Counted from the stretch's first letter, positions 14 to 34,266 are shown. The stretch: 34,317 bases of DNA from Reclinomonas americana ATCC 50394 (GCA_048213135.1 PS015223.1:1-34317); one strand, 5' to 3'. Numbers and translations are program-made. The notes: generated by a model not told the origin, from the sequence alone.

Positions 14-1686
14 CCTCTCGAACTGTGTCTTCTGCTGTTCCGCAACCGAACTACGCCCACCGCCCCTGAAGTTGTGCGCATGGCCAGTGATCCGTACGCT
101 GAGCAGTACGGCGGCAGCGGTGGTGGTGCCGGCCAGCTGAACAACGCCTCCGGCAGCGGAGTGACGCCTGGCGGCCCGATTGCGCTGGCCGACAACAACA
201 ACAACAGCGGAAGTGCCGCCGCGGCAGTGGCCATTGCAATGCAGCCAATGGCGGAGGGCGACCAGATGGCTCACCGTGTTCCGTCGGTCGTCCTCGGTCG
301 CGGTCCTCCGCAACTCCAGCCGGCGCTAAACATGCAGGCGGCCGGTGGCGTTGTGCTCCCGGGCTCCCCTGTGCAGAATCCGGTACGTTTTGCTCCAACA
401 CGTGGTCTTTGTAAGTTGATCGTGTGCTCACTCCGCTCTTGTCGTTGCATTCTCGCGTAGCCCGTGGCCGCCGATGGAAAGGTGTGTGTGTGTGTGTGTG
501 TGCAAAGAGAAACCCTCCTCCTTCCGATGCCCAGCGATCTCACATGCTGTCGCTGCACACAGGACATTGAGGCTAACGAGCAAGGCTACGTCAACGGAGC
601 TCGACGCATGTCGCCGTCGCAGTTGACGAGTCCATCCTCCGTGCAAGTTGCGTGAATGAGATGGCACTGGTGTTCTCGTCGACAGCAATTCACACTCATT
701 TATACACAGCCGGCGCTTGCCGACTCGGAATATGGTGCCGGTGACGCGGCATATGAAGAGAAAGTTGCGGCCACTGTCGTGTGTCGTCGCATGCTTTCCA
801 CGTACTAAATCTCTTGGTACAGATGCAACACCATGGCCGACAGCCGATTCCGCCCGCCAGCCCTCCATTGGCCAACCGCGCTCCGCCAAGAGTACGTCAC
901 TTGCATGCATTTGTTCCTCATTTTGCTCGTTCCTCATGAGGTGCTGGTGGTGGGCAGTTACAAGCTGCGCTCTCGGCGGCACCAATGGGCGAGGCGCGAG
1001 TGCACATGGAAAGCGTCACGGTGCGTCCTCCATGACCACTGTGTGTCGTTCGCCCATTATCTAACTTTGTGTGTTGTGTGCAGCATGACAATCCACACAT
1101 GGCGAGTTCCGCCGCTGCCCCGCCGCCACCCATTGAAGTGGGCGCCCTGCAGGGACCGTCGTTTGAGTACGACGACGATGTTTCGTGTGCAGCAGCCTCG
1201 CTAGTGCAATTCCCAGTCACTGGTTCTCATGATGATGGTGTGTATGCAGGGCGGTGACGAGCACGATGGCGACGGCGACGACGGTGATCTGTTTGCCAAT
1301 ATGCAAGGCGGCTTCCGTCCCCCCGTACCTCTTGGTCCCGCAACACCTGTCAACGCTGTCGCACCACCACCACCACCACCACAAAGACCGTCACCAGTTG
1401 CAGCGCCAGTGGAACAAGCGACACAAGACTTTGAGAGCAGTCCGGTGGCAGTGGTGCAGGCGCCTCCACCACGCGCACCACAGCTGGAATTCCTGGGCAC
1501 TGTTGCGTGCTGACTTGAACCCAATGCTGCTTCTCTCTCTCCCTCTGTCTGTCTATCCCGTCCTTATCATCAACGAACCAGGATTTTGAGGAGGGTGAGA
1601 ACGACAGCGACGATCTGTTCGCCGGCATCGAGGGTGGCTTCCGTGCACCGTCGGGTTTCAACACACCGCAAAATGTCGTCAGATGA
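14..1686 (+). CDS. 3' part of a multi-exon, low-complexity Pro/Ala/Gly/acidic protein of unknown function (9 visible exons; start probably upstream of the window)
   Basis: Acceptor gtgcag ends at 13. Donors at about 383, 482, 647, 764, 891, 1021, 1180 and 1502 join exons into one frame (PLELCLLLFRN...DDLFAGIEGGFRAPSGFNTPQNVVR) ending TGA 1684-1686. No recognisable domain. An ATG at 80 is an alternative start. Confidence 0.6.
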
Positions 1687-1994
1687 TGACGGTGCGTTGC
1701 TGTTTTTCCCTTTGCAAGTCACATTGCTCTCCTCCATTGGTAGCCTCATCTGCTCCTGTGCATTACAGAACTCCCCTGTATCNNNNNNNNNNNNNNNNNN
1801 NNNNNNNNNNNNNNNNNNNNNNNNNNNNNNNNNNNNNNNNNNNNNNNNNNNNNNNNNNNNNNNNNNNNNNNNNNNNNNNNNNNNNNNNNNNNNNNNNNNN
1901 NNNNNNNNNNNNNNNNNNNNNNNNNNNNNNNNNNNNNNNNNNNNNNNNNNNNNNNNNNNNNNNNNNNNNNNNNNNNNNNNNNNNNNNNNNNNNN

Positions 1995-4524
1995 GAATGT
2001 GCTCGGCAGCTTGGTGGCCGACGACGATGTCGACACGAGCAGCATGTCGACGGCAGAGATGGCGGCAGCCGCACTGCTGGCAATCGACTCCGAATCCAGA
2101 ATCGGCATGATAACTGGGTGGTTGCTGTCGGCGACCTTGATGGCCGTCGCAATCGTGTTGATCGACTGGTAAATGCGCAGTCGGTCGCCAGCGGCAAATG
2201 TCGAAGCGAAATTGTCTCCAATGCTCCACGCCAGCAGCGCGGGATGGTCCTTGTAGAGATTCACCACGCTGACCAAGAAGGCAACTTGCGCCGCCTCAGC
2301 ATCGCTGGACGCGCCATCTACGAAAAAAACGATCATCAACACAATGTCAGCATAACCGAAACGGGGTGCAAAAAGTTTGAAACGGACGCAACAAGTGAAG
2401 GGGTCGAAACGACCAGTGGCCTTTTCCGCCTGGAGCTTGAAGCCAACAATGGCGTTCATGCCGAGCTGGTACAAGTTGTCGAGGAACGGTGAGTTCAACT
2501 GGTCCAATCCATAGAGGTAGACCGTGTTGCCGCCAATCGAGCGCAGGAACTGCATGTCGGACTGCGTGACCACACTGGTGCCGCCGCGGATACGCATCTG
2601 GCGTGAACAGCGCGACAGAGTCCATCGCCGCCGCCCGTTGCCATCTTGCGCCACCTGCTGGGTGACTGTGGCCTTGGTGGTGCAGCCACCAGTCTGCGAA
2701 AAGAAAAAGAAGAAAAGGCGGCATGTCAGCAAGCAGTCCACACGAGCAAAGAAGAAGGAGAATGAAAGAGGATCTTTACGCAACGCAAGTGTCGGTAGCC
2801 ACGCAGCGCACGGTGCAGTCGCCCTTGAAACCAGCCGAGCAGGTGGACGAGTAGTAGGCATCAGCTGGACTTGGCTGCGCGACACCACCGGCCGAGGTGA
2901 TGGTGAAGGCCTTGTCGAGGAACACGCCGTTCTTGGTGTCAGCAGCGCGCAGGGTCACCAGCAGATTACCACTATATCGCGTGCCAATCATCAACTGGTT
3001 GCCGGACAAGAAGAAGGCATCGATCGGCTGTTGTGAGCGGATGGAGAAGGTGTGCGTGTCGCCGACATCGTCAATGGCAGAGATGTTGGCAGCCACCGCA
3101 CCCGACAGCGCGGCCGAGGCAATGGAAGTCGTCGACAACACAATGTCGCTCGGCGGGTTGTTAATGGGCAGCTGCAGAACCGTGTCCAGTGACTGACCAG
3201 TGCGGTCAGTGGCGCGGACGCGAATGCGCAGCGGCGTGCTGCGTCCACCAGCCACCGAGACGCCGGCTTTGGTTGACAGCACGCCAGTGGCGGAGGCCAG
3301 CGCAAAGTTGGCATTGTCGGTGTCGCCGGTGCCGGCAACCAGCGTGTAGTTGAATGTGTCGCCCACATTGAGGTCCAGCGCCTGCAGAGTGGCCACCACG
3401 GTGCTGCCAGAGAGCGGCAGAGCCAGTGGCAGCGGGGCCGAGGAGAGCGTCGGCACCACTCGGTACGGCGGCACCGGCACGCCGGGGTCGACCTTGACGG
3501 TGGTTGGCAGATCCGGCTGCACAACAAAACTCTTGTCGATGAACCGACTGGTCACCGAGTCGGTGGCGCGCAGCGAGAGGGTGATGGTCGGGTAAACACC
3601 GGCGGTTGGCGTCGGCACCGTGGCCATCACCAGCTGCGAGCCGCTGAGCGTGAAAATGCCAGCCGGCGACTGCGAGTTGATGAACAGCAGCGCCGTGTCG
3701 CCAACGTCGTCGGCCACCACCACGTTGCCGACAATCATGGTGGCAACCGGCGGCACGGTGTAGTACGGGTAATCGACGGCGATGTTGCTCGGGGCGTTGT
3801 TCACCGGCACTTCGAGGCGCACGTCAACGAACAGACCACTCGAATCTGTGGCGCGCACCATTGCAATCATGGGCGTGCGCTGCTGATTCGGGATGCCGGC
3901 CGGCACGACACGCAGTGTCGCAGTGCCAGAGATGTAAAAGTAGGCGTTGTCGCTGTCGGTGGCGTTGGCGCCGGTAGTCATCGAAAATGTCACCGTGTCC
4001 GCCGTGTTGGGGTCCGTGGCCGTCAGCGCACCAATCACGGTGTTACCAACAACCGGCAGGGCCAGCTTGCCGAGATAGTCGAAACGCAGCGTAATGTTGG
4101 TGGGCGGCATGGACGCTATGAAGGGGGTAAAGTGTGGTAAGCGATAATGGTGCAAAGACGCTCAAGAGGGTTGCAGGCAAACACACACACACACGCACCT
4201 TCCGCAATCGTCATGGTCTTCTCCACAAAGCGACCATTGATCTTATCGGTGGCTCGCACAGTGACGTTGAGGTTGTTGCCAGAGATGGTGGCCGAGTTCA
4301 CCAGCAGCTTGTCCACGTTCAGTGAAAAGGCTCCCGACGGCTGCATGGCCAGCAGCTCAAACTTGTGTGTGTCGCCAGCCGCGTCGACTGCCGACAGCGT
4401 GCCAATAGTGGCGCCGACTGTTGGTGGCAGTGCGTAGCGGTTGGACGTGATCACAATGTCTTGCGGCGCCATGTTGGCTGGTGGATGCACAAGCAGGAAT
4501 GAGTGAGCAGAGAGTGGGAGCAGC

Positions 4525-4575
<51 letters not shown>

Positions 4576-6718
4576 TGGTAGGAACGTAAACGTTGGACGA
4601 AGGAAGNNNNNNNNNNNNNNNNNNNNNNNNNNNNNNNNNNNNNNNNNNNNNNNNNNNNNNNNNNNNNNNNNNNNNNNNNNNNNNNNNNNNNNNNNNNNNN
4701 NNNNNNNNNNNNNNNNNNNNNNNNNNNNNNNNNNNNNNNNNNNNNNNNNNNNNNNNNNNNNNNNNNNNNNNNNNNNNNNNNNNNNNNNNNNNNNNNNNNN
4801 NNNNNNNNNNNNNNNNNCTTGTAGCGAGCGCGAGAAATTCGACGGAATGGTCGACGTGTTCTTCGTGTACAGGCCGTTGCCGGTGATGTTGAAGAAGGCG
4901 TTGTCGGTGTCGCCGGTGCCTGCCACCAGCGAGTATGTGAACTTGTCGACCATGTTCGGATCCGTGGTCGCCAGCGTGCCAATCAGTGTGCCATTCGCCA
5001 CCGGCAGCGGCAGCGGGTACGGGTCGGAGAGAATGGCCAGTGACATGCCAGTGGGCGCCACGTTGGTCTCCAGCAGCGCCAGATCCATGTCGAGCCACAG
5101 CTGACTGAACGTGTTGAGGGTGCGTACGCGCACCGTAACCGTTCCGGAAATGGGTGCGGCTCCAACGCGCAGCTGGTCGTTCTGTGTGCCGGCAAGTACA
5201 ACGGCATTGGCCGGCGTGCACGCCAAGATCGAGTACGTGTGGTTGCCGGGGCGGGTGTCGACCGTGGTCAGTGAGCCAATGAGGTCGCCAGCCGTGGAAG
5301 GGTAAGGGTACCGACTGTTGCTGAGAGTGATGTTGCTGGGTGGCACGGCCTCGAAGAAGGTGAACACGCGCTCCAGGTACATGCTGTTGCCGGGGTCCGT
5401 CACACGAAGGCGGATGGTCACGTCACCCGTGGGTGGCGTGTCAATCACCAGCGTGGAGTTGGAGACCTTGAACGCCCGCAGAGGCGTCTGTGAGGTGATG
5501 GTATACACACTCACATCTCCGGCATCGTCCGTGGAGGCAATGTTGGCCACCCACGCCCCGCTCACCGCCGGACTGCGGTAGAACGTGGTGTCGGCCTGAT
5601 CCACATGAAAGAGAGCAAGGGGGATGAGGGAGAGAGCCGTGAGTGAACAAGAACTGGAGGAGGAGGAAGAAGGAGGGCGGCCATACACACCTTGAGGTCG
5701 GAGGGCGAGTTGTTGACGGGAATCGTCACTGCCTTTTCCAGGAACAAGCCTGTCTGATCGGTGACGCGCAAGCGGATCTGCAGCGGTGGATTCTTAACAC
5801 TGAGATTCGGCAAGCCAGTGCCCGTGGCGGGCAAGTCCAGATTGCGCGTGTTGATCTTGAACAACCCATTGTCACGATCACCGTCACCGGCGACCAATGA
5901 GAAGGTAAAGGTGTCGGTAGGGTTCGGGTCACGAGCGTCAAGCGAGGCCACCGTGGAGCCGGCCGCGACCGGCAACGGCAGCGGCAGCGTGCTATTTGGT
6001 CGCGTGAAGATGAGCTGTGAAGGAGGTTGCGGAGCTGCGCCACGTGACAAATGAAGAGATACTTTTGCTTGAGCAAACAGGTAGAGGTAGGCGCACACTC
6101 TGCAAGTAGACGCAACGAGGCTGCTGATCACACTTGGGTCCCACCATGCCGTTGGTGCACTGGCAATTGTCGCCGGTGCGACCGGTGTGGCAGATGCACT
6201 TGCCGGTGTCGTCGCACTCGCCGAAACCACTGTGTGGAGGGAGCAGGCGTGAGAACAAAAGAAGGGGGATCGAAAACACGAGACAACTGCTGGCAGTGCC
6301 AACGAAACTTGCATGTCTCGACTGGGCGGCACTCGCAGCGTGTGCCGCCGAGGCCGGGAAAGCATGAGCACAGACCACCAACACACGTGCCGCCATTGTT
6401 GCAATCGGCGGCCGTCGTGCAAATGGGTGTGGCAGCATTGGTCTTGACGGCGGTCACTAGCGTACCATCTGCTCCCATCATGGCGGTGTCACCAGATAAG
6501 GGAGCGCTAGCGTTGAAGGCTCGCGCCATGGCGACTGCACAGCTGTGTGTCGTGAAGAAGAAAGAGTGNNNNNNNNNNNNNNNNNNNNNNNNNNNNNNNN
6601 NNNNNNNNNNNNNNNNNNNNNNNNNTTATCCAGCAACGCGCGCGCACACACAAACACACAGACACGCGATGAGGAGTGCGTGAGGTGAGCGAAATTTTGC
6701 AACGGTCACTTTTTTCAT
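1995..6718 (-). CDS. Large secreted or surface protein: putative signal peptide, EGF-like repeats, about 9 cadherin-like repeats, Cys-rich linker and GH2-like TIM-barrel domain (3' end lost in gap)
   Basis: Candidate ATG 6718 gives MKKVTVAKFRSPHALLIACLCAVAMARA. EGF-like segments CNNGGTCVGGLCSCFPGLGGTRC and CNGFGECDDTGKCICHTGRTGDNC lie at about 6120-6425. Repeats such as GTLATTDPNMVDKFTYSLVAGTGDTDNAFFNITG and VRATD..G span about 2890-6035. YKDHPALLAWSIG and IKVADSNHPV (about 2100-2260) match GH2/clan GH-A barrels. Confidence 0.8.
4529..4572 (+). repeat. (AG)n microsatellite in an intron of the cadherin-repeat gene
   Basis: About 22 perfect AG units next to an assembly gap. Confidence 0.95.
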
Positions 6719-9575: not shown

Positions 9576-9766
9576 GGCAGGGAGGGGAGGGTATGTCCAA
9601 CTTGTCGGTGAGCGATGTCGTTGTAAGGAAAAGGCTGAGCAGCGATGCTGAGTACGAGGCGATCCCAGCATTACATGCTGGTGCAGACGTGTGCATGCGT
9701 CTCTCTCCCCTCTTTTCTCTTCCCTCACTACCTCTCTCTCTCTCCCACCCCCTCGTTCCACGCAAC

Positions 9767-10528: not shown

Positions 10529-10700
10529 CCTTCCCTCCTTCTCCTCTCCTTCTCCTCTCCTTCTCCTCTCCTTCTCCTCTCCTTCTCCTCTCCTTCGTCT
10601 CTCCTTCTCCTCTCCTTCTCCTCTCCTTCTCCTCTCCTCTCCCTCCCTCCTCCCCTCTCCTTCTCCTCTCCTTCTCCTCTCCTTCTCCTCTCCTCCTCCC
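10529..10700 (+). repeat. Tandem 11-bp pyrimidine repeat (TTCTCCTCTCC)n in SF1 intron 1
   Basis: Directly visible. Confidence 0.95.
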
Positions 10701-10771
10701 GTCCCTTCCATCCTTCTCTCCCTTCCCTCTTCTGCGTCCCTCATCCCTTCGTCTCACCATTCTCGCTGCAG

Positions 10772-12349
10772 TCCGCGCTCGCCTGGAGGAAATCGGCCGC
10801 AAGGTCAACCTGGGCGCGTATGAGGAGGAAGAGATGCAGCGGTGAGTCTTGTGTCTCCTGCATGTTTTCGCTTATTTGTCAGCATGTCCTCTCATCTCTG
10901 TCGACGCGCAGTGAGCCATCGCCAGACTACGTTTACGATCGGTACGGCAAGCGCCAGAACACGCGTGATCAGGTCGTCAAGGATCGCCTCAACATTGAAC
11001 GACGTGATCTGGTCAAGAAAGCCATGCAAGTGTGGCCGCAGTTCAGAGTTGCGTGATGTTTTTGTTGATCGCGTGTGTGGTTGTTTGATGTTTGAAAATG
11101 GATGCTCGTTCCTTGCAGCCGCCGGTTGACATGAAGCCGGAGAACCTGCGCATCACGAAGAAGATCCCCATTCCGTACAAGAAGTACCCGGACTACAATT
11201 TTATTGGTGCGTGATGGCACTGTCGTTTTCTCACCCGCGGCCTCTCACTGACACACTTTCTGCCTCAACAGGTTTGATTATCGGTCCGCGTGGCAACACT
11301 CAGAAGCGCCTGACGCGTGAAACCGGTTGCAACATTGCCATTCGTGGCAAGGGTTCCACAAAGGAGGGCAGAGTTGCGTCGATCTCTATTGCTCACTGCC
11401 CACTCTCTGTCTCACTCCCTCTCTCTATCCACAGTCCAATCGCCCGCAGCCAGGCGATGATGAAGATTTGCACGTGGCTGTGACCGGTGACACCATGGAG
11501 CAAGTCGATAAGGTTTTGTGATTATTTTCCTCTCCTCCTTCCATCCCCGTTCACTCACTCACTCCTTCCTCCTTCCTCCTCCTCACCCCAGGCCGTCAAG
11601 ATGATTGAAAAGCTCTTGGTGCCCATCGACGACGACCTGAACGACTGGAAGCGCAAGCAGCTGGAGGAGCTGGCCAAGATCAATGGTAGGCACACACAAA
11701 TTAGCTCTCCTCCCTTGCTTCTTTTCTTTCTCACACTGCTCCTCCCCCAGGCACATTGCGCGACGATCGACAGGAGGGCGGCTCCGGCAGGCATACCGAC
11801 CAGTACTTTGCTGGTGGCGCTGGCATGGCCGGTGGCGCCGGTGCTGCCGGTGGCCGTGGCAACTCGCGCATGGATGAAGAGTATCAGGATTTCATGGCGG
11901 AAATCGAAGGCAAGGATCGCTCCGCGCGCGCAGCACCACCGCCACCTCCACCACCGCCATCAGCCGGCGGTTACGGTGGCGGCATGCTACCGGCACCTGC
12001 CATGGCGCCCGGTATGGCTCCTGGCCTGGCACCGGGCATGGCTCCCAGCTACTATCCGCCACCCGCGGCAGCCTACCCCGGCTACCCACCACCGCCGCCG
12101 CCGGCCGCGTACGGTGGATATCCGGGCTATGGTGTGCCGGTACCTCCAGCTCCTGGTGCTCCGTGGGGCGCGGTAAGTCTCTCTTTCTGTTTGTGTTGAA
12201 TCCTTTTTGTGGCTGTCGTTTGTTCACCAGTGATTCTTGATTCATTCGTGCAGCCGGCACCGTGGGGTGATCCGTCACAGCAGCAGCAGCAGCAGCAACA
12301 ACAACCGTGGGCCACGCAATCATACGACCAACGGCCTCCGGGATTGTAA
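10772..12349 (+). CDS. SF1: Splicing factor 1 / BBP, exons 2-9 (helix-hairpin, KH-QUA2, Pro-rich tail)
   Basis: Spliced frame gives [40 protein letters not shown]...[36 protein letters not shown] and [12 protein letters not shown]. Stop TAA 12347-12349. Confidence 0.95.
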
Positions 12350-20300: not shown

Positions 20301-20788
20301 TGAGCAATGCAGAGACTCAAAAGAGAGACAAAGAGAGAGAGCAAAAAGCACACCATCATAGTAGCGAATGGCCTCGCGACCCGAATCACGGTCGAGAGTC
20401 ACTTCAATGGGCTGCATCACAGAGTGTGTATCTGTGTGTGTTAGTGCACGCGCGCATACACACGAGGAGAGAGAAGACCAAGAAGAAAAAAGTCACCTCG
20501 CGAATGTGCGCATAAGGCCTGCATGCAATCAGTGTGTGTGAGGAATACCAATCATGATGCACACACACGCGGAAAAAACGACGCAACAGCTCAAGCACGA
20601 GGGCCATGGTGTACTGCGCACACACATCATGTGAGAGACTTGTGTGTTTACGTGCTCTCTCTGTGAATGCACACCTTGCTGGGCCACATAGGCGGTGCCA
20701 CTGCAGCAGCATCGGCCTCGGGGGCAAGCACGGCCGCTGCAACAAGCAGCAACAGAGCGGCGACAAGGAGAGCACTCACTCGGCGCAT
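17313..20788 (-). CDS. Papain-family (C1A) cysteine protease of the 26/29-kDa / CfaD type (N-terminal extension, I29 propeptide, catalytic domain); 27 exons
   Basis: Signal peptide from ATG 20788. GYNVIGGSHYDEY marks the 26/29-kDa family. ERFNIN-like EYTQRRANFERNMRLINEHN. Catalytic-domain motifs FDWR, PVRDQGVCGSCWAFS, LDHAVLVVGYG, YWIVQNSWSTHWGDDGY and NNCGIATTPNFP. Stop TAA 17313-17315. Confidence 0.95.
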
Positions 20789-20878: not shown

Positions 20879-23471
20879 TCAGTCCTGCTCGCCCATTTCA
20901 CTCATTGGTCGCTCCTCCAGTGCGGCCTCGGCGGCAGCGGCCTCAGCAGCGGCAATTGCGGCTTGTTCCTCTTCCCAGAGAGATACGGCACGCTCGCGGG
21001 CGACCTCGATTTCCGATTCTTCGACCTCGCTGGCGTTCTGTCGAAGATAGAGGTTAGCAGCCCGTCACAGTAGAAGAGAGAGATATATAGATGGCGCGGT
21101 GGTTGTCGCTTCTCACCAGCATCCTTATGTTGGGACCGGGCGTCGTGACGACGATGCCTTGCGGGTCAAAGAGCATGGCGTGAATGTCGCCAGGTGGGAA
21201 CTCCTCCAGATTCTCTGTGCTCACCGAGTGGCGGGTTAGGGATGCTGGCGCGCATCTGTTGTCCGCTCACTACTTGTGCTCACCTCTGGCGTCCAGCTCG
21301 GTCAGGCTCGGCAGGTGTCTCAGATGCGCAAACTCCTTGATGCTGGCCAGGTGGTTGTCGCACAGATTCAGCGAGGTGAGGTGCACGAGGCCGGCGGTGG
21401 CAAACTCGGCAAGCGACGAAATTCTGTTGGTGTTGAGGGTGAGGCTGCGCACGGACTGGAAGCGAGAGAGGCCGTCCAGCTTGAAAATGGCGTTGCTGGC
21501 CAGGCTCATGGTCTCCAGCACCGGCGAGTCCAGTTTCGGTAGTTGTGACAGGGCGTTGGTGCTGAGATCGAGGTGTCGTACAGACAGCAGGCCCGTCATG
21601 TCAAAGATCATGATGGAATTCTCTGTCGCCAGCGATGGTGAGGCGGGGAAGAGAGCGAAAGTGGAAGAGACAGGTGACTGACCAGAGAGGATTAGGGTTT
21701 GCAGATTGGCGCAGGCGGCTTGACCGCGCATGTAACGCAGACTATTGTCATGCATGTCCAGGTGTTCAAGTGATTCTGTGGGGAGGGGGGGGGGAGGTGT
21801 TCAGTGAGCACAACACTCGTATCTCTTTCACACACACACTCGCTTCTGTCTCTCTCTCTCTCTCACACACACTTGTTGTTGATAGCGCACCTCTTTGCAT
21901 CAGCGGCGTAATGTCGTGCACAATGTTGTGTTGCGCGGTGCAGCTGAGCAGGTGTGGCAGCTCGCCGAGGGGAGACACATCGCGAATGGCATTCTTCGAA
22001 ATGTTCACGTGCAACAGCGTCGACATGCGCGCCGTGCCACCCAAGTCGAGGATGCCAGCGTCGGCCAGGTCCAGTTGAGAGAAGCCGTAGTTTTCGCCGT
22101 CGGGTAGCAGCCGGATCTGCCATGCAACAACAACATTTTCAGAGAGCGAACACTTCCACCCTATTCTTGTGAGGGGTCGACGCAACGACGCTCAGTGCAT
22201 TGCACAGCTTCTCCTCGCTGCAGGGCTCGCCAGAAGGAAAGTCGGCCTCCACCACTTGTTGCATGACACGCATCAGGTCGTCAATGGTCCGACCCGGCGC
22301 CGGTTCCGACACACTGTGCAGCACCCAATCGATGCCCTCGCGGTACACCTTGCACAGCAGCAGGCCTGTGTCGTGGTGAGTCGGGTGAACACGAATGCGC
22401 GTGCACAGAGCATGTCAGCGCGAACCTGTGTGCGGACCCGCCGCATCCACCGACATCCACCACACGGGCTTGTCGTTCTTCGAGTCCAGCACACGACAGT
22501 GCGCCGACCGAACGTGCTCGAATGACACGCCCGAGAAGCTGTTCAGCACAATAAAGACCGCCTGTGTGCATGCAGACCCGAGTGTGAACGAACGCGGTGG
22601 TAGGGGGCATCACACCGCGCATACTGCAACGCGCAACGCAACATGCACACCGGCCGGCACCAAATCAAAATCGACCATCACCGTCTCATCGTCGCCATCG
22701 CCCTCGCCCGTGCGGTTATCGCCCGAGTGCACAATCGATCCATTGTCGTTGCGCAATTTGCGGAACCACACCGACTCTTGCGGCTCACCATTACGCGAAA
22801 ACGTGCCTGGGCGGTCACAAACGAAATTGAGTAAACGCATCGTCGTCGTCGCGGAGGCGGACATGCAAACTGCGCAACAGCACGACACGTCGAGATCGAC
22901 CGCTCCCAGTCCCACATGCTCGTCCATGTCCCATCCTACACAACACAGCTACATAAACAACAGACGCTCGGTCGCTGCGGGAAGGCGCAGCAGCAGCATA
23001 CCACATCCAAATTTCTGAACAACCGAACATGCCAAGAGGGATCAGTGAGTCCCACGGTGGCCACACGCACACACGCACACAAAGACAAACAGGGAGAGAG
23101 GAGGCTCACCAGTTTGCGTCGCGCTCCCAGTCGAACTCTATCCCAGCACAAAAACGCACAAGTTACATATGCAATAAAAACAACCCACTCGTCATCATCA
23201 ATCATCAAATCAAACGCAACGATGCTCCTCGATGCAACGACACCGCCTGCTGCCGCAACGCCCACCGTTCATCCGATGGATTGCCCGACATGGGCGACGG
23301 CGCCGATGAAGGCGCAGACGACTCCCCGCCCTCCTCCGCCACATGAATGCCCAGTCGACCGCCGCTGCCTCCCACACTGCTCCCACCCTCCTCTGCGTCA
23401 GCACCACCACCACCACCACGCGCAGAGGCAATGGCAATGTCAATGTCCATTCCACGCGCACTCAGATCCAT
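20879..23471 (-). CDS. Fusion protein: TerD (Ca2+-binding stress) domain + LRRC23/LRGUK-like leucine-rich repeats + acidic tail; 12 exons
   Basis: TerD motifs KLKFGCGWD, VDLDVSC, SIVHSGDNRTGEGDGDDETVMVDF, VLNSFSG and LLCKVYREG..W. These are followed in the same exon by PCSEEKLCNALSV, then YGFSQLDLADAGILDL...HVNISKNAIRDVSPLGELPHLL and SDS22-like LRRs. Stop TGA 20879-20881. Confidence 0.85.
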
Positions 23472-23734: not shown

Positions 23735-26055
23735 ATGGCCGAGTTTGACAACCCACTTGCGCGTCGAGTGTTGCGTCATCACACGCACACACGCGCACAC
23801 ATGAGGCACACACGCAGAGAGAGAGAAAGATAGACACGTCGAAGTGACACAATACCAACACACACACACACACTTCACACAAACCGTTCCTTTTCGTGCC
23901 GACAGACACATGCACTCACACACACTCACTCTCTTGCTCACTCTCTTGCTCACTCTCTTGTTCTTCTCTCCAGGCATGAGCAGTTGAGTCGACAGAATGA
24001 GCAACTGAGGGCCCAACAGAGCGAGCTGGACGACCACACCGAGTGGGTGCGTCAGCAGCAGGTGCCACAGGCGCCACTGAGTGCGCGCAGTGGTGGATCA
24101 TTAAAGCAACAACAACAGCAACAACACGGTTGCGTGGATTCTCTCTCTCTCAGCACACAGCACATGTGTCATCTTACTGGATCTCGATCGATGCAGATGG
24201 AGAGAGCGATGGCAGTGGATCGCCACTGGCAGCAGCAGCAGGTGGTGCTGCGGCGAGCAGTGTGTCGCCGGCGCCACGTCGCAGCCATAGCACGGGCGGG
24301 ACGCGTCCTCCAGTTGCGTTTCTCCACAGAGCGGGCCCGCCTAATGCGATGCTCACTCACACGCGCGCGCGCGCGTCACAGATTGAGGAGATCCTGCTGA
24401 ACAAGGGCAAGGAGTACAAGGAGAAGCTGGAGCGTCTGCGCGCTGAGGAGCTGGCGCGACAGCAGGCGGAGGTCACGGGCACGCCGTCGATTGCGCGCTT
24501 GCACACCGTGTCGTATGATCACTCCAAGCCGGTGGAGGAGCGGCTGCTGGAGATGGCGGCCAAGCGGCGTGAGATGCGGGAGCAAAAGGAGAAGGAGAAG
24601 GTGGAGGAGCCGGATCCAGAGCTCACGTTTAAGCCGCGCATCTCGGAGGCCTCCAAGAAGCGCCACTATGAGGGCGTGGAGCAGCACTTGTACTATCATT
24701 GGGTGCGTCTTTTTTTTCCCCTCCTCGTACTCCCCCTTTCTCCTTCTCGCTCACCTCTGCGCGCACGCATTCNNNNNNNNNNNNNNNNNNNNNNNNNNNN
24801 NNNNNNNNNNNNNNNNNNNNNNNNNNNNNNNNNNNNNNNNNNNNNNNNNNNNNNNNNNNNNNNNNNNNNNNNNNNNNNNNNNNNNNNNNNNNNNNNNNNN
24901 NNNNNNNNNNNNNNNNNNNNNNNNNNNNNNNNNNNNNNNNNNNNNNNNNNNNNNNNNNNNNNNNNNNNNNNNNNNNNNNNNNNNNNNNNNNNNNNNNNNN
25001 NNNNNNNNNNNNNNNNNNNNNNNNNNNNNNNNNNNNNNNNNNNNNNNNNNNNNNNNNNNNNNNNNNNNNNCCACACGTGGTGTGTGTGGAAGTTGGAAGT
25101 TGGAAGTTGACGAATCCTTATTGTTGTGCAGCCGACCACTGCGCAGGAGCGCCTGTTGCGCCACACGGCGTCGTCAGAGGCCGCTCGGTCACCCACCGCT
25201 GCCGCTGCACCGGGTGGCAGTCCGCAAAAGGGCGACGATGCCATGTTCCGGCCGCAGATCAACTCCAACAGCCGCGAGATGGAGAGGCGCACGGGCCCGC
25301 GCACTGATCGCAATCTGGCGCTGTTTGAGCTGGTTTGTACCTGTGTTTTCTTTCTCTCTTTCTCATTGGCACTCAAGTTTCTCTTTCGCAGAGCAAGCGC
25401 AAGCGCGAAGCTCAGGAGCAGCAGAACCGCCAGCAGGCGATCGAGGAGAAGGAGCTGGAGGAGTGCACGTTCTCGCCCAAGATTCGCAAGCCGCGTGGCG
25501 GGTTCGTCTTCAGCCACCCCCTGTTCCTCCTCCCTCGTGCAGCTTTCTTAGGCCCTCTCTTGTGTTCCTCGCGCAGTGGTAACCTGGCCGGCAGCGTTGT
25601 CGACCGTGCGCATCAGTGGGCCAAGAATCGCCAGAGCCGCATACAGAGTGAGCAGGATTCGCGCGCACAGGAGGAGCTCAAGGAGTGCACGTTTACGCCC
25701 AAGATTTCGGTGGGGAACGCTGTCGCTCATGAACGAATGCGTATGTCTACAGCGTTCTCACCCTCTCTCCCTTCACCTACAGGGACCTCCGAGGACACCG
25801 GTCAGTGGCAGTCTGACGCCGCGCAGCCCATTGGCCAGCGCCGTGAGCGAGGTGGCGCCGTCGCCATCGGCGGGCTCGGTGGCACCGGGCGTGGATGAGT
25901 ACGTGGAGCGCGTGCGCAGCGCGCGCAAGAAGAAGGAGGAGCTGGAAAAGTCGACATTTGTGTCGGGCGCCAACTGGCAGCCGCGCCTCACCAAGGGCAA
26001 GGCACCGAAGCTCGGCCGCGAGGCACACGATGTGAGCATCAAGTCGCTGAAGAGG
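23735..26055 (+). CDS. Charged coiled-coil protein with repeated (E)xTFxPxI motifs, probably cytoskeletal; incomplete (internal and 3' gaps)
   Basis: Motifs ELTFKPRIS, MFRPQINSNS, ECTFSPKI and ECTFTPKIS sit among E/K/R-rich helices, with exons bounded by GT/AG. Start ATG 23735 is tentative. Confidence 0.7.
23925..23960 (+). repeat. 3 x 12-bp tandem repeat CTCACTCTCTTG in an intron pyrimidine tract
   Basis: Directly visible. Confidence 0.85.
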
Positions 26056-26346: not shown

Positions 26347-26952
26347 TTAACCTGTCGCTTTCACCCGCCGCGCTGCCGCCCCGGCTTTTGGGCGAGATCT
26401 GGTCGGCCATCGACGCCGCCATCTCTGTCAAGGACGCCGAGATCTTCTCCTTCTCCGACGCCGACTCGGGCCTCGACGAGGGCAAGATCTGGTCCTTCTA
26501 CCTGTTCTTTGTCAACCGGCGCATGCACCGCATCCTCTTCTTCACATGTTCGGCCGAAAAGTTGCGCTCACACGACCTCTTGTCATGGTTGTGTACTGAT
26601 TGCCGTACTCATCATCATCATCCCCTGTTGGAGCAGCAAGCACGTCGACATGGAAATGTCGACACAAGAAGAGGACGAGGACGACGAGTATTCGACCGCG
26701 AGTAGCAGCAAGAACGCCGGCGTACATTACAGTCGAATCGAGCGTGGCAAGAACTTTGGTTTCCACTTCCGAGTACCTAGTGATGAGGTTGGTTTCGACA
26801 CAGACACATACGTCTCTCCTGCTCTCTCCTCTCTGCCTCCTTCTCCTTCTTCCCTTTCCTTTGCGCTGCTTGCTGACGAGTGAGTGTGTGTGCAGGTCGA
26901 GTGGGAAACGTCATTCGACTTTGACCCCGAGGATGAGTTCGACGAGCTGTGA
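26347..26952 (+). CDS. MAF1: Maf1, repressor of RNA polymerase III transcription (C-terminal 3 exons; N-terminus in gap)
   Basis: IWSAIDAAISVKDAEIFSFS...EGKIWSFYLFFVNRRMHRILFFTC matches the Maf1 C-box (LW..ID..I.L..C.IYSY...G.LWSFNYFFYNKK.KRI.FF.C), followed by an acidic tail. Stop TGA 26950-26952. Confidence 0.9.
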
Positions 26953-27610: not shown

Positions 27611-28762
27611 ATGGCATCGTCCTCTGCATCATCATCGAGTCGCGCACAGGCACGCCAGCGAGCTCGCGATCGACAAAAGGCCATGCTGATCGAGGAGGAT
27701 GTGATCCTGGAGTCGACCTCCGACCCTTCCGCGCCCAACCTCTCCGGCATGCTCAGCTACGTCGACACGCACTCACTCCAGCGACCCAGTTGCGCCCCTC
27801 CCACAGACACACACACACTGTCTCTCTCTCTCTCTCACGCATGAATGATCAGTTGGTGTGATCATTACACATCCGCATCCCAAGTTTGGCGGCGACATGA
27901 AGAACAACGTCGTGCGTGCATTGGCTGTCAGTCTCGCCGCTCGAGGCTACCTCACTCTGCGCTTTGACTTTCGCGGAGTCGGTCGCTCCAGTTGCGCAAG
28001 AGAAAGAGGAAAGGGGAAAGAGCTTCACCGCAGTGCCTTAGCAATTGCTCTGCGACTGCAGTGGGATCGTCGTCGTGGCGAGGCACGAGTGAGCGACAGG
28101 ACGTGGTGACTGCGTACGAGTGGATGGTGTCGACGTTCATGCAGGAACGCGAGAGTGGGAAGCCGCAGGAGGAGGGAGCTGTGTCGCCGCAGGAGGCGGC
28201 ACTGATGGCCAAGCGACCACCGCGAATCGACTCGTTGTGGATTGTCGGCTACTCGTTTGGTGCCAGTGTTGGTGCGTCTCCACTGCCTGAGTGGGGGGCG
28301 ATGTGAGGCTGAGTGTGTGTGTGTGTGCTCGCAGCGTGCAGTGTGGCGCCGCGATTGGAGCGCGTGTCAGGCTACGCTGGTATCTCGATGCCGGCGGGGT
28401 TCTTTAGCGGTTTCCTGCTCGGGCATCACCTGAAGGTTTCTTTTTGCGCTCGTGCCTGTGCGTGTGTGTCGTGGAGGTGGTCGGTGCTTGACGAGCGAGT
28501 TCCTGCGTGCAGTTGGTCGACAGCCCAAAGCCCAAGTTGTTCACCAATGGTATGTGTTTTTCTTCCCAGCGTTGAATGTGCTGCTGTGTGTGATCTCATT
28601 CGTGTGCTGCAGGATCTCGCGGTGTGTGTGCCACCGCCCCTCTACGTTCCACTCGCCCTCTCCTCATTTTTCGTGGTCCCACAGACTCGTTCACCGGCAT
28701 GTCTCGCTTCCGCTCGTTCTACGAAAAGCTCTCCCAGCCCAAGTGGCAGGCCGAGTTCGATG
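27611..28762 (+). CDS. Alpha/beta-fold hydrolase (HPHP..GG type); last exon with the catalytic His is in the gap
   Basis: VIITHPHPKFGGDMKNNVV, LRFDFRGVGRS, nucleophile elbow GYSFG and acid motif NGSRDSFT. Confidence 0.9.
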
Positions 28763-29547
28763 GTAGCAGCTTCACGCGCGCCATCTGTGCATGAGAGTAT
28801 GNNNNNNNNNNNNNNNNNNNNNNNNNNNNNNNNNNNNNNNNNNNNNNNNNNNNNNNNNNNNNNNNNNNNNNNNNNNNNNNNNNNNNNNNNNNNNNNNNNN
28901 NNNNNNNNNNNNNNNNNNNNNNNNNNNNNNNNNNNNNNNNNNNNNNNNNNNNNNNNNNNNNNNNNNNNNNNNNNNNNNNNNNNNNNNNNNNNNNNNNNNN
29001 NNNNNNNNNNNNNNNNNNNNNNNNNNNNNNNNNNNNNNNNNNNNNNNNNNNNNNNNNNNNNNNNNNNNNNNNNNNNNNNNNNNNNNNNNNNNNNNNNNNN
29101 NNNNNNNNNNNNNNNNNNNNNNNNNNNNNNNNNNNNNNNNNNNNNNNNNNNNNNNNNNNNNNNNNNNNNNNNNNNNNNNNNNNNNNNNNNNNNNNNNNNN
29201 NNNNNNNNNNNNNNNNNNNNNNNNNNNNNNNNNNNNNNNNNNNNNNNNNNNNNNNNNNNNNNNNNNNNNNNNNNNNNNNNNNNNNNNNNNNNNNNNNNNN
29301 NNNNNNNNNNNNNNNNNNNNNNNNNNNNNNNNNNNNNNNNNNNNNNNNNNNNNNNNNNNNNNNNNNNNNNNNNNNNNNNNNNNNNNNNNNNNNNNNNNNN
29401 NNNNNNNNNNNNNNNNNNNNNNNNNNNNNNNNNNNNNNNNNNNNNNNNNNNNNNNNNNNNNNNNNNNNNNNNNNNNNNNNNNNNNNNNNNNNNNNNNNNC
29501 TTCTTGTTTCCTTTGCTGTCATTGTGCATGGCTCACGGCTGGTGCAG

Positions 29548-32500
29548 CGTGTTCCGCATCTCGCCGAGTGCGCCCGAGGCAGCGGGGTGGCCGTCGCTGC
29601 TCTCCGAGTACATTTATGAGCGTGTGGCGGCGTCGTTGTCGCAGCGGTGCGACCGTATTGCGGCCAGCATTGCCACGGTGTTGCAGGACTCGCGGTTGGA
29701 GTCGGGACGCATGTGGTCGCGCTACTATGCGCTCAATGTTCCGTTTCTCTCTCGCTCTTTCTCCTCCTCCTCTTTCTCTCGCACTCATTCACGGAATTGC
29801 AGGAATGCATGGCCAATGCGTACTGGATGGTGGGTGCGTTTGACACGGCGCTGCGGCTGTACATGGAGACGGTGGCGGCGGCGGAATCGGCGGGTGCGAC
29901 AATTATTGCGATTGTCATTTCCTCTCCGACACACTCTCCTCACGTGCAGAGTGCAGGTTTCCCTACGTTCGGTGGCGACTCGGCGTGCATTCAATCGCCG
30001 ATGATCCTCTTCTCGGATCCGCGCACACACGACATTGATTACCACGCACGTATTTATGCGCGTGTGATTGCCGAGGCCGAGTTCTTTCAATACATTCGGG
30101 CGTGCATCTTTGAGGTTTGTGTGTGTGCCTGCCACTTGCTTTCTCTTTTCATGCACGCCGCTCAATTGCATACACACAGCTGCAACTGCACATGGGCCTG
30201 GTGAACGATGCAGCCGTCATGGGCATGGAGTTTATTCATTCGTTCCGGCAGCGAATCATGAACAAAGTGGTGCGTTGCAGTATCCAGTGCGGTTGTGACC
30301 GTGCGTGTGCTCTGAACGGGGGTGCTGCTTGCAGGGCGACCAGACAGCTACGCTGTGGACGTACCGTGCGTGTATCAGTCTGGTGCAGCGACTGAAGCCG
30401 TACACCAGGATGCAGCGTGTGGCCGCCGTGTGTGGACACGCATACTTACTCGCACGCAACAAGGTGCAGTGGGTGTGATGCACCATGCGTTGTCAACCTC
30501 CTCATTCGCACTGCGTAGCTGTACGAATTGGCCGACGAAATGTCCGCAGCCGGTGCCACGGTCGACAGCACCTCACGAGCGTCGAGTGGCGCGCGCACGA
30601 GTCCCACCGAGAGCGAGAGTGCCGCCAGCGACGCGGCGCAGTCGTTCAGTCCGAGTCGTGGCCTTCCACCGAGGTTGGCGCAGCTGCGACAGGATAGTCT
30701 CACCGACTTGCTCTCGTCCACCAGTGCGAGTCCGCGATGTGCGTCGCCTCACTTCACTAGTAGCGATACGTTATGCCTTTTCTTCTCACTGTCTGTCGTA
30801 CAGCTCTGGCTGCCTCTGCAGCTGCGCCGCCAGCGGAGATTGTGTTGGACGTGACTCCACACCTTACCGATCTTGCATTTGTTGACGAGCAGGCAATGGT
30901 GCGTGTGTTCTACGTGCAAAGAGAGGCCATCTGTCCTCCTCACTCACGCGGATGCACTGCGCAGCTGCTTACCAAGGCGGCAGAGGTGGAGTTCACACAA
31001 GCTGGCAGACACCGCTTCAGTGCAATGCTCAGTGTCGACATTGCCGACATGCATGTGTACGTACTGCACTTCGCAAAGACGTCGTGTGGTGTGTATTCAT
31101 CTCTCTTCTCTTTTGTGTGTGCAGCAAACAACGGCGATACGAGGACGCCGAGCATCTGTACAAGTCCACGTGCGCCATTTATGCGCACAATGGCTGGACC
31201 GAACTGGTGCACTCGACGCAAATCAAGTTGGCCCTGTGCGAGTACCGACTCGATCACCATGCCGAGTTGCGTGCCATCACGTGCACACTATCTCATGAAC
31301 GCAGTTTTGTCACTTATTCCGACGTGTGTCAATCAGGTACGTGCTGACGTGCATCAGTCTGCTGCACTCGCTGGCGGCCGAGGATCGGCAGCGACAAGAG
31401 TACTTTAGCGAGATGTCGCGTGTGGCACACGACGTGCTCACTCGTCGTTGCGTCTATTTCTATATTGTGTCTTTACATGCATACCTTTCTTGCATTGCTC
31501 ACGCCTCTCCACCACTGCAGCTGTGGTGCGCGACTTGCAGCCGAACTTGGCACTGCACGCCATCACCGGTGAGGACGGCAAGTCGTTTTTCCACACGCAG
31601 GCCAAGGAGGAGTTTGAGATGCACCTGCACATTTATTCCAGCTTCCCCTGCGTTGCGTCACCAACCCCCCAGTGCATCGCCTGCATGAGCGCGCCAGGAT
31701 ATACTCACGCTTCTCCTCATTTTCCAGCCCGTTCCAATCGATAACGTGCGCGTCAGCGTGGTGCGACTGACGGAAAACATGCTGGACGAGCGCGAACTGC
31801 GTGCCTTGCCGGTCGATTTCTCGCCGCAACACACCTCCTCGACCGTTCCGTACGATCAGGAGCTGGTGGCGCAGAATGTGGTGCTGCAGCCACACGCCAT
31901 CACTGTGGTATGCATCAAGGGTGGTGGCACGCTGGTGGGCTCGTACGCCGCCAAGCGTGTGGCTCTCGAGTTCGGCATGCTGCACTTTGTGCAGATTCTG
32001 AGCCAGCCGCAAACCGTGCACTTTGTCATTGCACCGGCCACGCCACCCTACGTGCTCGAGCTGCCGTGCGACAAGCGTGCGTACTGCGCACTATCTCATT
32101 TCTGTTTCTCTCGCTCACTCTTATGTTTCTTACCCTTTTTTGGCGTCTTCACCACAGACACGTTCTTTGCCGGCCACTCGGGGTTCGTGCAGTTTGTGCT
32201 GCACTTGCAGGAGGATCTGGAGGCTGGTTCGCGCCTGCTGGTCTCCGCGTCGGAAGGCTCCGAAATGGGTGACTTGACGATTCTCGAGGGCGGCGGTCCG
32301 AGCACCATTCTGTCGAGTGTGCGCTCCACCATTCGCAGTCCGCCCAGCACACTGCTCTCTGTGCACCTCGGTGCCCTGGAACGGGGTGCTTGCTTGCGCT
32401 TCTCGCTCAAGGTCGACGCCTCGGATGAGTCCCTGTCGTCGGCCGCGGCCGTTGCCGGTGGTTCTGTTGCAGGCGGTGGCGCAGCGCGAAAGGTCACCGC

Positions 32501-34266
32501 GGGTCGCAGCAGCAGTGGGTCCGGCGGTCCGAACAGCAGCGGCATGAGTGGCAGTAGCGCTGCTGCTGGCGGTGGTGGTGGTGGTGGTGGTGCTGGCGGC
32601 AGTGGTGCCAGCGGTAGCGGTGCAGGCGGTGGTGCTGGGGGCTCGCTGACGCACCGTTGAGTGTTTATCATCATCGCCACACGTACCATTTGTGATGATC
32701 ACTTACCCGGTATCTCTGTTTTCACGTGTGTGCAGCACCGGCCGTGATGCGTGCCCTGTCCGGCCAGTTGTTTGCGTCGGCGAACCCGGTTGGCAGTTCA
32801 GCGCATTCCTCGACAGAGGCACCCGCGGGGGCAGCCGGCGCAGATGAGGGCATGCTGCCGAGCTCGACGGCGCTTCACAGGGTGCGCTACGAAATGTTTA
32901 ATGGGCGAGACGAGCATCTTTTGACTCACCCTTGTGTGTAAACACACGCACAGTCGAGCGACGCTGTGGTTGGCGGCGCAAGTCGTGCATCACAAAAGCC
33001 TGCGCTGCCCTCGATTGCCATCACCACACCGACGTCGGCTGCCGCAACTGCTGCCGCCCCAGTGAGCAAGCGACGACGACCAAAGGCTCCTGTCAATACT
33101 GTTGCGCCCCGATCGTGCCTGTTTGTGCATGCTAGGAAGAGAAAATGCCTCACCCTCCACATCTCCTCCACCAGTTAATCATTCGAGTGTGTCGCTACTC
33201 GTCCGTCGGCCACGTGATTGACACGACGCAGACCAGTGTGCGATTCACCTTTGTGGAGCCCTTTGATTTCGCCGTGCGCGGCTACTACGCCCACCAAGCG
33301 TGAGTCTTTTTCTTTCTTTCTATCCTTCTTCCTTCCCCTCCCAGCCACCAACACTGACTCTCTCTTCTTTGCGCACAGTGGTACCATGCTGCAGTCGAAA
33401 CTCACTTTCGACAGCCGCCTGCCGATGCAAGTGGCGTCGATGCACCTGGAGGTGGACTCGCCGCATGTGCGAGCCGAGTCCTCTCAGGCGGCCGAGGCCG
33501 CTGTTGGACAGGTATTGGGTGTGGTGGTCGATGCGGTGCGTGTGCTGGGTGCCGACCATCGTGTTTGCGCACAGCTTTTGAGACGGCACGATGTGATCTC
33601 GGCGTGTCACCATCTGCAATTCGTGTCGCCGAATGACGAACCCATACTACATTCGCCTTCTCGTGCGGTTTTGCATGTGGCTCTCAGGCGGCCGGACGAC
33701 ACTCGGCTCTATCACTTTGATTATCCCATCGATCTGGCGACTGTGCTGCCAGTTGCGCTGATCCTGTTCTTTCTGCTGTAGTGCGTTTGCAGCCTCTCAC
33801 CACCACCATCTGCATGACACGCACAGGCCCTGTGCACGGCCGAGCTCAGTTTCCCGGTGCGCGGACGAGTAAGCTCACCGCTGTTGATGCGCATCCGAGT
33901 GGCTCTCCCCCCAGGAGTCGTTCTCGGCGAGGGCGATGGACCCGATCGACAGCCACCATCCGGGCGAGGACGAGGCAATTCGGGCGACTTGTTGTCGACT
34001 GTCAGCAAGAACGCAGTGGCTGGTGCGGAGAATTGGGGGTAGTGGAAGAGAGCCCTTACGTCACTCACTCTGCCTGTGCAGCGGCTCGCGAGCAAACCCT
34101 GCGACGCATGCGTCACGGTGCGGTCCGAGCCCGTGTGGTATTTGACACCTCGTGCTGGGTGGTGTGCGGTGTGACCACCAGAGTGCTGCGTGAGCAGGAG
34201 ACGTCGTGGGAGTGCACGCTGCTGCCGACGATTGATGGATACATTAGCGCACCCACTGTGCACTTG
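29548..34266 (+). CDS. TRAPPC10: Trafficking protein particle complex subunit 10 (Trs130), partial at both ends, about 20 visible exons
   Basis: EFFQYIRAC, YLLARNKLYEL, AGRHRFSAML..DIAD, YAHNGWTEL and C-terminal WVVCG...LLPTIDGYISAPTVHL resemble TRAPPC10 segments. Two Ser/Gly-rich insertions are present. Confidence 0.8.

Follow-up and report, generated by a model that had tools for sequence, protein, structure and literature searches.

In human genes, 5' splice sites (donors) of the /GUUAAGU type are read in a shifted register, which has been demonstrated at these rare sites (Roca & Krainer 2009 as cited in Tan et al. 2016, PMC4856993). All validated human non-canonical registers together amounted, in the passages cited, to approximately 1.5% of 201,541 donors (Tan et al. 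2016, PMC4856993). Mastigamoeba carries GUGCGC donors together with a U1 5' arm reading ACGUAC, the G of which pairs with +4C, and Thecamonas and the Mamiellales are described as preferring +4C and keeping the standard U1 (Roy & Bowser, 10.1101/2022.06.08.495308). LUC7 paralogues distinguish donors that depend on the exon side from those that depend on the intron side in animals and plants (Kenny et al. 2025, PMC11842720). The present analysis concerns a 34,317-nt stretch of the nuclear genome of Reclinomonas americana ATCC 50394 (GCA_048213135.1 PS015223.1:1-34317), referred to below as the window, in which a large class of predicted donors with the consensus GTTGCGT resembles the ordinary donors displaced by one base. 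The window is a single 34.3-kb piece with nine N gaps, and all of its introns are predictions from sequence. An earlier note on the window had listed 39 such donors among roughly 125 and had described them as G/GTGCGT slid by one base, the slash marking the point of cleavage.

Introns were predicted using our own dynamic-programming GT-AG gene finder, in which exons were scored by codon log-odds and an open frame was kept across introns of 40-300 nt. Bonuses were given for a CTNAY branch site, a YAG 3' end and a length near 70 nt. The finder never scored exonic donor positions, so the last base of the exon (-1) is a free read-out. Early runs with flat signals under-called introns (28, then 106), and strand masks and a learned donor mixture were added. 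Donors matching GTT[GTC][CA]G were assigned to the shift class, those with +5G to the normal class, and the remainder to a class termed other. The final set comprised 111 frame-consistent introns in 14 gene models, with 32 shift, 65 normal and 14 other donors, some of the last probably being wrong. By the fixed motif rule the shift class held 32/111 donors (29%), and its members were present in 11 of the 14 predicted genes.

The class did not depend on the donor model. With all donor scoring removed the finder called 117 introns, 19 of them shift-type, and the pattern fits only 3.5% of all GT sites. An unsupervised two-component mixture over positions +3 to +8 of the introns from that run separated a G[C/T]GT component (weight 0.70) from a TGCGT component (0.30); after three retraining rounds the weights were 0.64 and 0.36. 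The share claimed in the earlier note (about 39 of about 125) compares with the 29% of the automated set and the 30-36% of the mixture. All 39 listed motifs were found at their coordinate and strand (32 GTTGCG, 4 GTTGAGT and 3 GTTTCG/GTTCCG), and 31 of these sites were called as donors; the other 8 lay in 5' exons omitted by the models or within over-long modeled introns.

Motif counts were compared with dinucleotide-preserving shuffles (100 for GTTGCG). GTTGCG occurred 55 times versus 32.17±5.30 in shuffled sequence, a count reached in 0/100 shuffles, and GTTGCGT occurred 27 times versus 7.65±2.85. The canonical twin GGTGCGT occurred 18 times (7.48±2.73 shuffled), and GTTGCGT was the most frequent donor-like word in the window. 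Since GGTTGCG was at chance level (5 copies versus 7.08±2.90), the excess of GTTGCG lies entirely in H-GTTGCG. Among the 27 GTTGCGT copies, 21 were automated donors, 4 more were donors of the earlier note in unannotated or differently modeled stretches, and 2 were antisense to genes; 25 of the 27 were therefore sense-strand copies at a donor either called or listed. The 15 copies of GT[ACG]GCGT included no donor, so the extra base is always T. There was no copy of GTTACGT anywhere in the window.

The two classes differed sharply in the -1 base. Shift donors (n=32) followed A in 13 cases, T in 9, C in 9 and G in 1; normal donors (n=65) followed G in 45, C in 8, T in 7 and A in 5. The dependence between the -1 base and the shifted form, which the earlier note had proposed for a genome-wide count, was thus evident within the window (-1G in 1/32 versus 45/65; Fisher p=1.1e-10). 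It held in phase 0 (0/13 versus 24/32) and in phase 1 (1/11 versus 18/23), and also without any donor model (0/19 versus 39/61, p=2.7e-7). Against phase-matched exonic background, the shift class should have had 9-10 cases of -1G and had 1 (P=5e-5 to 2e-4), and -1A was found in 13/32 versus 6.05 expected (P=0.003). Within the normal class there was a hint of a trade-off, GT[GA]NGT being present in 70% of donors lacking -1G versus 47% of those with it.

Counted the other way, the shift form was used at 1/53 exons ending in G and at 31/58 exons ending in another base. A threshold model was used for comparison, in which all 65,536 donors of two exon and six intron positions were enumerated and accepted if their RNAduplex energy with one U1 arm passed. 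It predicted a shift-type share of approximately 2% for G-ending exons and 1-3% for other exon ends. An active ban on -1G is not needed, because the observed 1/53 is close to the model's 2%. The earlier note had spoken of near-exclusion of exonic G: the scarcity stands (1/32 here, and 24129 as the sole exception among its 39 sites), as does its statement that donors after exonic G almost all use the normal register, but the anomaly is better stated as a strong preference for the slid form at non-G exon ends. The existence of the class and its -1 dependence hint that reading splice sites in two registers is routine for the cell.

Base profiles were computed for positions -6 to +12. The shift profile was +3T 0.96, +4G 0.84, +5C 0.84, +6G 0.96 and +7T 0.87. 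The normal profile was -1G 0.68, +3G 0.68, +4C 0.41, T 0.34 or A 0.23, +5G by definition and +6T 0.68. The shift consensus was accordingly much tighter, at 84-96% per position versus 41-68% in the normal class with its +5G fixed by definition. The Jensen-Shannon divergence between the two profiles was 0.132 at an offset of +1, 0.333 at 0, 0.362 at -1 and 0.541 at +2. The best fit was that of the shift profile with the normal profile one position upstream, as the slid-by-one-base description requires. The offset extended into the exon, T being rare at shift -2 (0.10) and normal -3 (0.07) and not at normal -2 (0.31). Variants were mirrored across the classes (GTGCGT/GTTGCGT, GTGAGT/GTTGAGT, GTTCGT/GTTTCGT).

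In their 3' halves the introns of the two classes were identical, with the reservation that branch motif, YAG end and length were all priors of the finder. A CTNAY branch was present in 26/32 shift and 58/65 normal introns, the branch A stood a median 20.5 nt from the 3' splice site in both, and the top branch motif was CTCAC, followed by CTCAT. C preceded the terminal AG (position -3) in 31/32 shift and 55/65 normal introns. Lengths were 71 and 70 nt, respectively, and body GC content was alike. Both classes appear to be U2-type GT-AG introns, the predicted removal of which restores an open, homologous frame (GH30, Peptidase_C1, SF1-HH, KH). U12-type introns were considered and rejected: there was neither a /RTATCCTT donor nor a TCCTTAAC branch, the donor being GTTGCGT and the branch CTCAC or CTCAT instead.

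The sites of the shift class are listed below by coordinates and strand, with the last exon base in lower case before the slash. "Model" denotes an intron of the automated gene models, "flat" one found also with flat donor scoring, and "listed" a donor of the earlier note with its motif confirmed.

647..709, + strand, shift intron a/GTTGCGT (model, motif)
764..770, + strand, donor a/GTTGCGG (listed; the model picked the GT at 779 instead)
1180..1249, + strand, shift intron t/GTTTCGT (model)
1502..1581, + strand, shift intron t/GTTGCGT (model)
2318..2392, - strand, shift intron t/GTTGCGT (model, flat)
2694..2784, - strand, shift intron c/GTTGCGT (model, flat)
6110..6116, - strand, donor c/GTTGCGT (listed; within a 142-nt intron of the model)
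6230..6308, - strand, shift intron a/GTTTCGT (model, flat)
9760..9766, - strand, donor a/GTTGCGT (listed; stretch unannotated by the model)
11048..11118, + strand, shift intron a/GTTGCGT, SF1 gene, FR/PP (model; preceding exon ends at SF1-HH profile position 108/114)
11373..11434, + strand, shift intron a/GTTGCGT, SF1 KH domain (model, flat; KH profile contiguous within about 2 positions)
14799..14805, + strand, donor a/GTTGCGT, likely the first GH30 intron after the signal-peptide exon (listed; outside the model)
15837..15907, + strand, shift intron a/GTTGAGT, GH30, LSK/YV (model; gap-free versus P0005)
16247..16312, + strand, shift intron t/GTTGCGT, GH30 (model)
16529..16588, + strand, shift intron c/GTTGCGT, GH30, LKN/YQ (model; equals a 20-residue gap versus P0005)
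17469..17539, - strand, shift intron a/GTTGCGT, papain-family protease (model; Peptidase_C1 profile spacing)
17567..17640, - strand, shift intron a/GTTGCGT, protease, VQN/SW (model; Peptidase_C1 spacing, 10 residues for 10 positions)
17894..17964, - strand, shift intron t/GTTGCGT (model, flat)
18432..18495, - strand, shift intron a/GTTGAGT (model, flat)
19224..19292, - strand, shift intron c/GTTGCGT (model, flat)
19981..20030, - strand, shift intron c/GTTTCGT, absent from the list of the earlier note (model)
20140..20207, - strand, shift intron c/GTTGAGT (model, flat)
20519..20587, - strand, shift intron t/GTTGCGT (model, flat)
22117..22186, - strand, shift intron c/GTTGCGT, TerD-LRR gene (model, flat)
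22562..22642, - strand, shift intron t/GTTGCGT (model)
22872..22878, - strand, donor t/GTTGCGC (listed; upstream of the model's start codon)
23214..23220, - strand, donor c/GTTGCGT (listed; upstream of the model's start codon)
23770..23973, + strand, shift intron t/GTTGCGT, 204 nt, long for the window (model)
24129..24196, + strand, shift intron g/GTTGCGT, the sole shift intron with -1G (model, motif)
24313..24381, + strand, shift intron a/GTTGCGT (model)
26561..26636, + strand, shift intron a/GTTGCGC, Maf1 gene (model, flat)
27789..27852, + strand, shift intron a/GTTGCGC (model, flat)
27991..28061, + strand, shift intron a/GTTGCGC (model, flat)
29738..29802, + strand, shift intron t/GTTCCGT (model, flat)
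31266..31336, + strand, shift intron a/GTTGCGT (model)
31447..31520, + strand, shift intron c/GTTGCGT (model)
31652..31727, + strand, shift intron c/GTTGCGT (model, flat)
32656..32735, + strand, shift intron c/GTTGAGT (model, flat)
33101..33107, + strand, donor t/GTTGCGC (listed; within a 113-nt intron of the model)
33752..33758, + strand, donor a/GTTGCGC (listed; within a suspicious 291-nt intron of the model)

A sub-variant of the shift motif ending in C, GTTGCGC, was present at 26561, 27789, 27991, 33101, 33752 and 22878, and the three copies that were automated donors sit in two neighboring genes. It recalls the +6C donors described for Mastigamoeba (10.1101/2022.06.08.495308).

Cleavage in the shift class is predicted to fall before the GT, one base upstream of the junction that U1 pairing would define. 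The earlier note had held the same, and four shift junctions fix the position independently of splice signals, two by homology (15837 and 16529) and two by Pfam profile spacing (17640 and 17539). At 15837 in the GH30 gene, the homologue P0005 aligned without a gap through LSK/YV. At 16529 the 60-nt in-frame intron corresponded exactly to a 20-residue gap versus P0005 between LKN and YQY. In the protease gene, the exon ending at 17641 reaches position 187 of the Peptidase_C1 profile and the exon two introns later begins at 198. The ten residues that the model places in between (N, SWSTHWGD and D) fill the ten missing Peptidase_C1 positions, by which both 17640 and 17539 are fixed. Within 18 nt of 28 of the 32 shift donors no GT in the same phase carried a plausible signal, and 19 of them had no in-phase GT at all in that range. 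Searches for protease homologues with two queries, an exon of 83 amino acids and one of 43 amino acids with read-through, found none. A metagenome scan with P0002 returned four short contigs in which the matches were uninterrupted, so they offered no introns for comparison. The intron at 16529-16588 (+ strand) is in frame and free of stop codons; its retention would add 20 residues to the GH30 enzyme.

The reading that we favor, and to which we give roughly even confidence, is that shift introns are of the U2 type and that U1 reads their donor one base downstream, with +1G taking the place of -1G. Both donor classes would fit one template, G-Y-U-G-C-G-U, the first G of which pairs with the U1 nucleotide that normally faces exon -1 (C9 in universal numbering). 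In the normal class Y would be G, the template would begin at exon -1 and cleavage would follow its first G (G/GUGCGU). In the shift class Y would be U, the template would begin at intron +1 and cleavage would precede it (N/GUUGCGU). The site of cleavage would be set by the position of the GU rather than by the U1 register, presumably at the later U6/U5/Prp8 step. Exons ending in G would be read in the canonical register, in which a loose intronic signal is tolerated. At other exon ends the lost G:C pair would mostly be regained by sliding one base, with the internal U mismatch offset by a near-perfect UGCGU. On this reading U1 would be the reader, a single U1 would serve both classes, and U6 would then accept a one-base bulge.

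Several features of the class are consistent with such a slide. The slid register would set +1G opposite the U1 C that usually faces -1G, and exon -1 opposite the next U (U10). The enrichment of -1A without enrichment of -1G fits this arrangement because exon -1 would face U10 and not C9. The constancy of the extra T is more in keeping with a paired +3U than with an arbitrary bulge, given that GT[ACG]GCGT yields no donors. The tighter shift consensus is to be expected if an internal mismatch must be compensated. Possible pairs were counted using the universal U1 5' arm, which may not be that of this organism. With this arm the shift class had a mean of 6.25 pairs in the shifted register versus 4.19 in the canonical one, the shifted register being better in 26/32, and the normal class had 7.42 canonical and 4.14 shifted pairs. 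The second U1 register proposed in the earlier note thus fits, and the common insertion origin that it offered as an alternative does not, as the introns form no family.

The arm itself may depart from the universal sequence. C was preferred opposite U1 nucleotide 5 in both classes (+4C 0.41 in normal donors; +5C 0.84, versus A 0.13, in shift donors), and G was preferred over A at the position after this C. The preference for C suggests either a non-standard U1 arm or a preference exerted by something other than U1, as in Thecamonas and the Mamiellales. That the arm here reads ACGCACC or ACGUACC, and not ACUUACC, we rate at somewhat less than an even chance.

A number of results weigh against the shifted-register reading. 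Duplexes with the universal arm were very weak for the shift class (mean -1.35 versus -5.79 kcal/mol for the normal class). The single-U1 threshold model, with either arm, placed its 1-3% of shift-type donors where 31/58 were observed. GUUGCGU also offers no pairs in the canonical register of the U6 ACAGAGA box, so a shift or bulge at U6 would be needed in a third of introns, for which there is no citable precedent. The introns come from a home-made model in which branch motif, YAG end and length were priors and which left 8/39 listed sites uncalled, and the evidence is confined to one window and to predicted introns, with pairs counted against the universal U1 arm.

Pairing energy alone did not account for the class. 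A/GUGCGU and A/GUUGCGU had equal predicted energies with either arm, so that the size of sequence space should favor the canonical form; the opposite was observed at non-G exon ends. Simple thermodynamic compensation was rejected as a full explanation, since it fails on the size of the class and on its use at non-G exon ends. The failure of single-U1 pairing energy calls for an extra rule, namely a near-obligatory G:C9 pair, or for another component. The shifted-register reading may be extended to a major spliceosome that works in two registers and reads a third of GT-AG introns one base off. It would do so through a U1 paralogue with A8 or through a single U1 and a U6 box accepting the offset, and the near-obligatory G:C9 pair would be drawn from exon -1 or from intron +1. 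This extension is put forward tentatively and is rather doubtful.

The other component could be a second U1 small nuclear RNA (snRNA). A paralogue with A for C at arm position 8 would pair with GUUGCGU perfectly from +1 to +7, and the standard U1 would serve G/GUGCGU. Such a pair of U1s would suit a class that is discrete and very large (29-36%), and would address the 20-40 fold error of the single-U1 threshold model for donors without -1G. The hypothetical A8 arm gave -14.4 kcal/mol for A/GUUGCGU versus -10.1 with the C8 arm, and U1 arms do evolve, reading AACAAAC in Entamoeba and ACGUAC in Mastigamoeba (10.1101/2022.06.08.495308). A dedicated, perfectly matching U1 should, however, allow mismatches as the normal class does, whereas the shift consensus is far more rigid, and the near-absence of the form at G-ending exons is not explained by a paralogue alone. 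We regard two U1s as unlikely.

Another possibility is a bulged register: U1 (and U6) would pair with +1 and +2 as usual and then with +4 to +7, one U (+2 or +3) being looped out. Human bulges at +2/+3 have been validated, with 68 sites first predicted and 54 in the curated list (PMC4856993), RNAduplex selected the bulged register for G/GUUGCGU (-9.9 kcal/mol, inferred arm), and a bulge of some kind seems inescapable when U6 pairs. With +1 and +2 paired canonically, though, a G at -1 would gain a further G:C pair and enrichment of -1G would be expected, which is the reverse of the 1/32 seen against 45/65 in the normal class. The looped base need not be U, yet none of the 15 GT[ACG]GCGT copies was a donor, and the -1A enrichment fits the U10 pairing of the shifted frame. 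The bulged register is improbable on these grounds.

Much the same standing is given to a reader other than U1, either a lineage-specific protein (for example LUC7-like or U1C-like) or direct recognition by U6 or U5, with the likeness to a slid consensus secondary. The shift class has almost no predicted affinity for a universal U1 arm (-1.35 kcal/mol), and a standard U1 does not explain the C at +4 of normal and +5 of shift donors; Thecamonas and the Mamiellales show the +4C preference with a standard U1 (10.1101/2022.06.08.495308). LUC7 paralogues also separate exon-side- from intron-side-dependent donors in animals and plants (PMC11842720). The exact one-base offset of the profiles, exon included, is nevertheless the prediction of a slid RNA helix and would not obviously follow from a protein site, and no candidate factor was identified. 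We consider such a reader improbable.

A recent common origin from an introner-like element whose end is the motif is highly improbable despite the strongly conserved 7-mer and a -1 bias that could reflect a target site: the intron bodies are unrelated, since all-against-all blastn-short of the 111 introns gave only low-complexity matches of 12-18 nt with shift-shift pairs not enriched, and length, branch site and GC content are those of other introns in a class spread over 11/14 genes. Equally far-fetched is an artefact in which the sites are not donors or their boundaries were mis-inferred both by hand and by the finder; the junctions do come from sequence and a home-made model that left 8/39 listed sites uncalled and in later iterations scored the motif itself, but the class persisted without donor scoring (19/117 versus 3.5% of GT sites, -1G 0/19), homology or profile spacing fixes four junctions, and 25/27 GTTGCGT copies are sense-strand at called or listed donors.

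The window is gene-dense, and its genes are split by very many short introns. Pfam matches to single exons named SF1 (SF1-HH and KH), a GH30 glucosylceramidase, Maf1, a papain-family protease with an I29 propeptide, a TerD-LRR protein and, weakly, a TRAPPC10 C-terminus. Rfam searches of the whole window at gathering thresholds gave 0 matches and hence no snRNA in the window. Intron density was extreme, at 6.7/kb of coding sequence (111 predicted introns in 16.6 kb). Median lengths were 70 nt for introns and 92 nt for internal exons, 7/97 of the latter being of 15 nt or less; the protease gene (17313-20689, - strand) has 26 predicted introns.

SF1, the branch-point binding protein, is encoded at 10771-12233 (+ strand). 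An open frame runs upstream of its predicted start toward an N gap. The model therefore probably lacks the true 5' end of the gene or draws it wrongly. A large repeated-domain gene at 1995-6568 (- strand) contains two N gaps. The ESM Atlas linked it to generic cadherin-domain clusters (score 0.93, with a recognition value under the usual cut), and none of its exons matched a Pfam family at E<=0.01. Homologues found for the last GH30 exon were all at or below 49% identity. One metagenome-derived homologue of a GH30 exon, P0003, carries an insertion within the conserved AFHWYG motif that resembles an in-frame intron left unspliced and translated; the protein probably comes from some other eukaryote with introns, this one lying at another position. 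Thirteen predicted donors read GTGTGT (482, 4192, 13040 and 25080 among them), several within (GT)n microsatellites, and they may be a mixture of real donors and mis-placed boundaries. Runs of (CA)n/(GT)n and (GA)n are frequent in introns and spacers.

The choice of cleavage site under an out-of-register U1 is known only from a few rare human sites and from reporter constructs. If the doubtful extension to a two-register spliceosome is true, R. americana would be the first organism with a non-canonical 5' splice-site register as a main mode of splicing and not a rare exception, and would offer a natural system for cleavage-site choice independent of U1. Three questions are at stake: whether splicing with a flexible register of U1, which entails the same for U6, can be the ordinary state across a genome, whether recognition of the 5' splice site is truly anchored by the C9:G pair, and whether donor classes evolve together with U1 arms or paralogues. 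Gene predictors with a single donor matrix would mis-model about one third of introns in such a genome; in our runs, a finder lacking a class-aware donor model misplaced many shift boundaries relative to the class-aware run. Literature searches (full text, outside supplements and subscription-only papers) found no account, for any lineage, of a major donor class of the GTTGCGT or +1-shifted kind, and for the motif itself returned only primers and unrelated uses.

The human /GUUAAGU sites are alike in having an extra U after the GU, U1 paired one base downstream and cleavage kept at the GU (PMC4856993). They differ in scale, all validated human non-canonical registers together reaching about 1.5% versus 29-36% of donors in the window (PMC4856993). 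They also differ in their core, AAGU versus GCGU, and here GTTGCGT (27 copies) outnumbers GGTGCGT (18). The human +2/+3 bulge and asymmetric-loop registers likewise place one extra nucleotide after the GU and ahead of the paired block downstream, but in the passages cited they keep the -1G:C9 pair (PMC4856993), whereas -1G was present here in 1/32 and the extra base was always U. The Archamoebae share a lineage-wide atypical donor consensus, with the same +4C preference in Mastigamoeba as here; as described, they have one donor class in one register (10.1101/2022.06.08.495308), in contrast to the two classes one base apart in the window. The left- and right-handed LUC7 classes resemble the trade-off between -1G and the intron side that is hinted at in the normal class, but as described they share one register (PMC11842720), and in the window it is the intron-side class that lies one base off. 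U12-type introns offer the parallel of a second, discrete class of donors held to a rigid consensus, but here the branch site and 3' end do not differ from those of the main class. What is new in the window is scale and discreteness, a single slid form making up approximately 30% of donors and over half of the donors without -1G.

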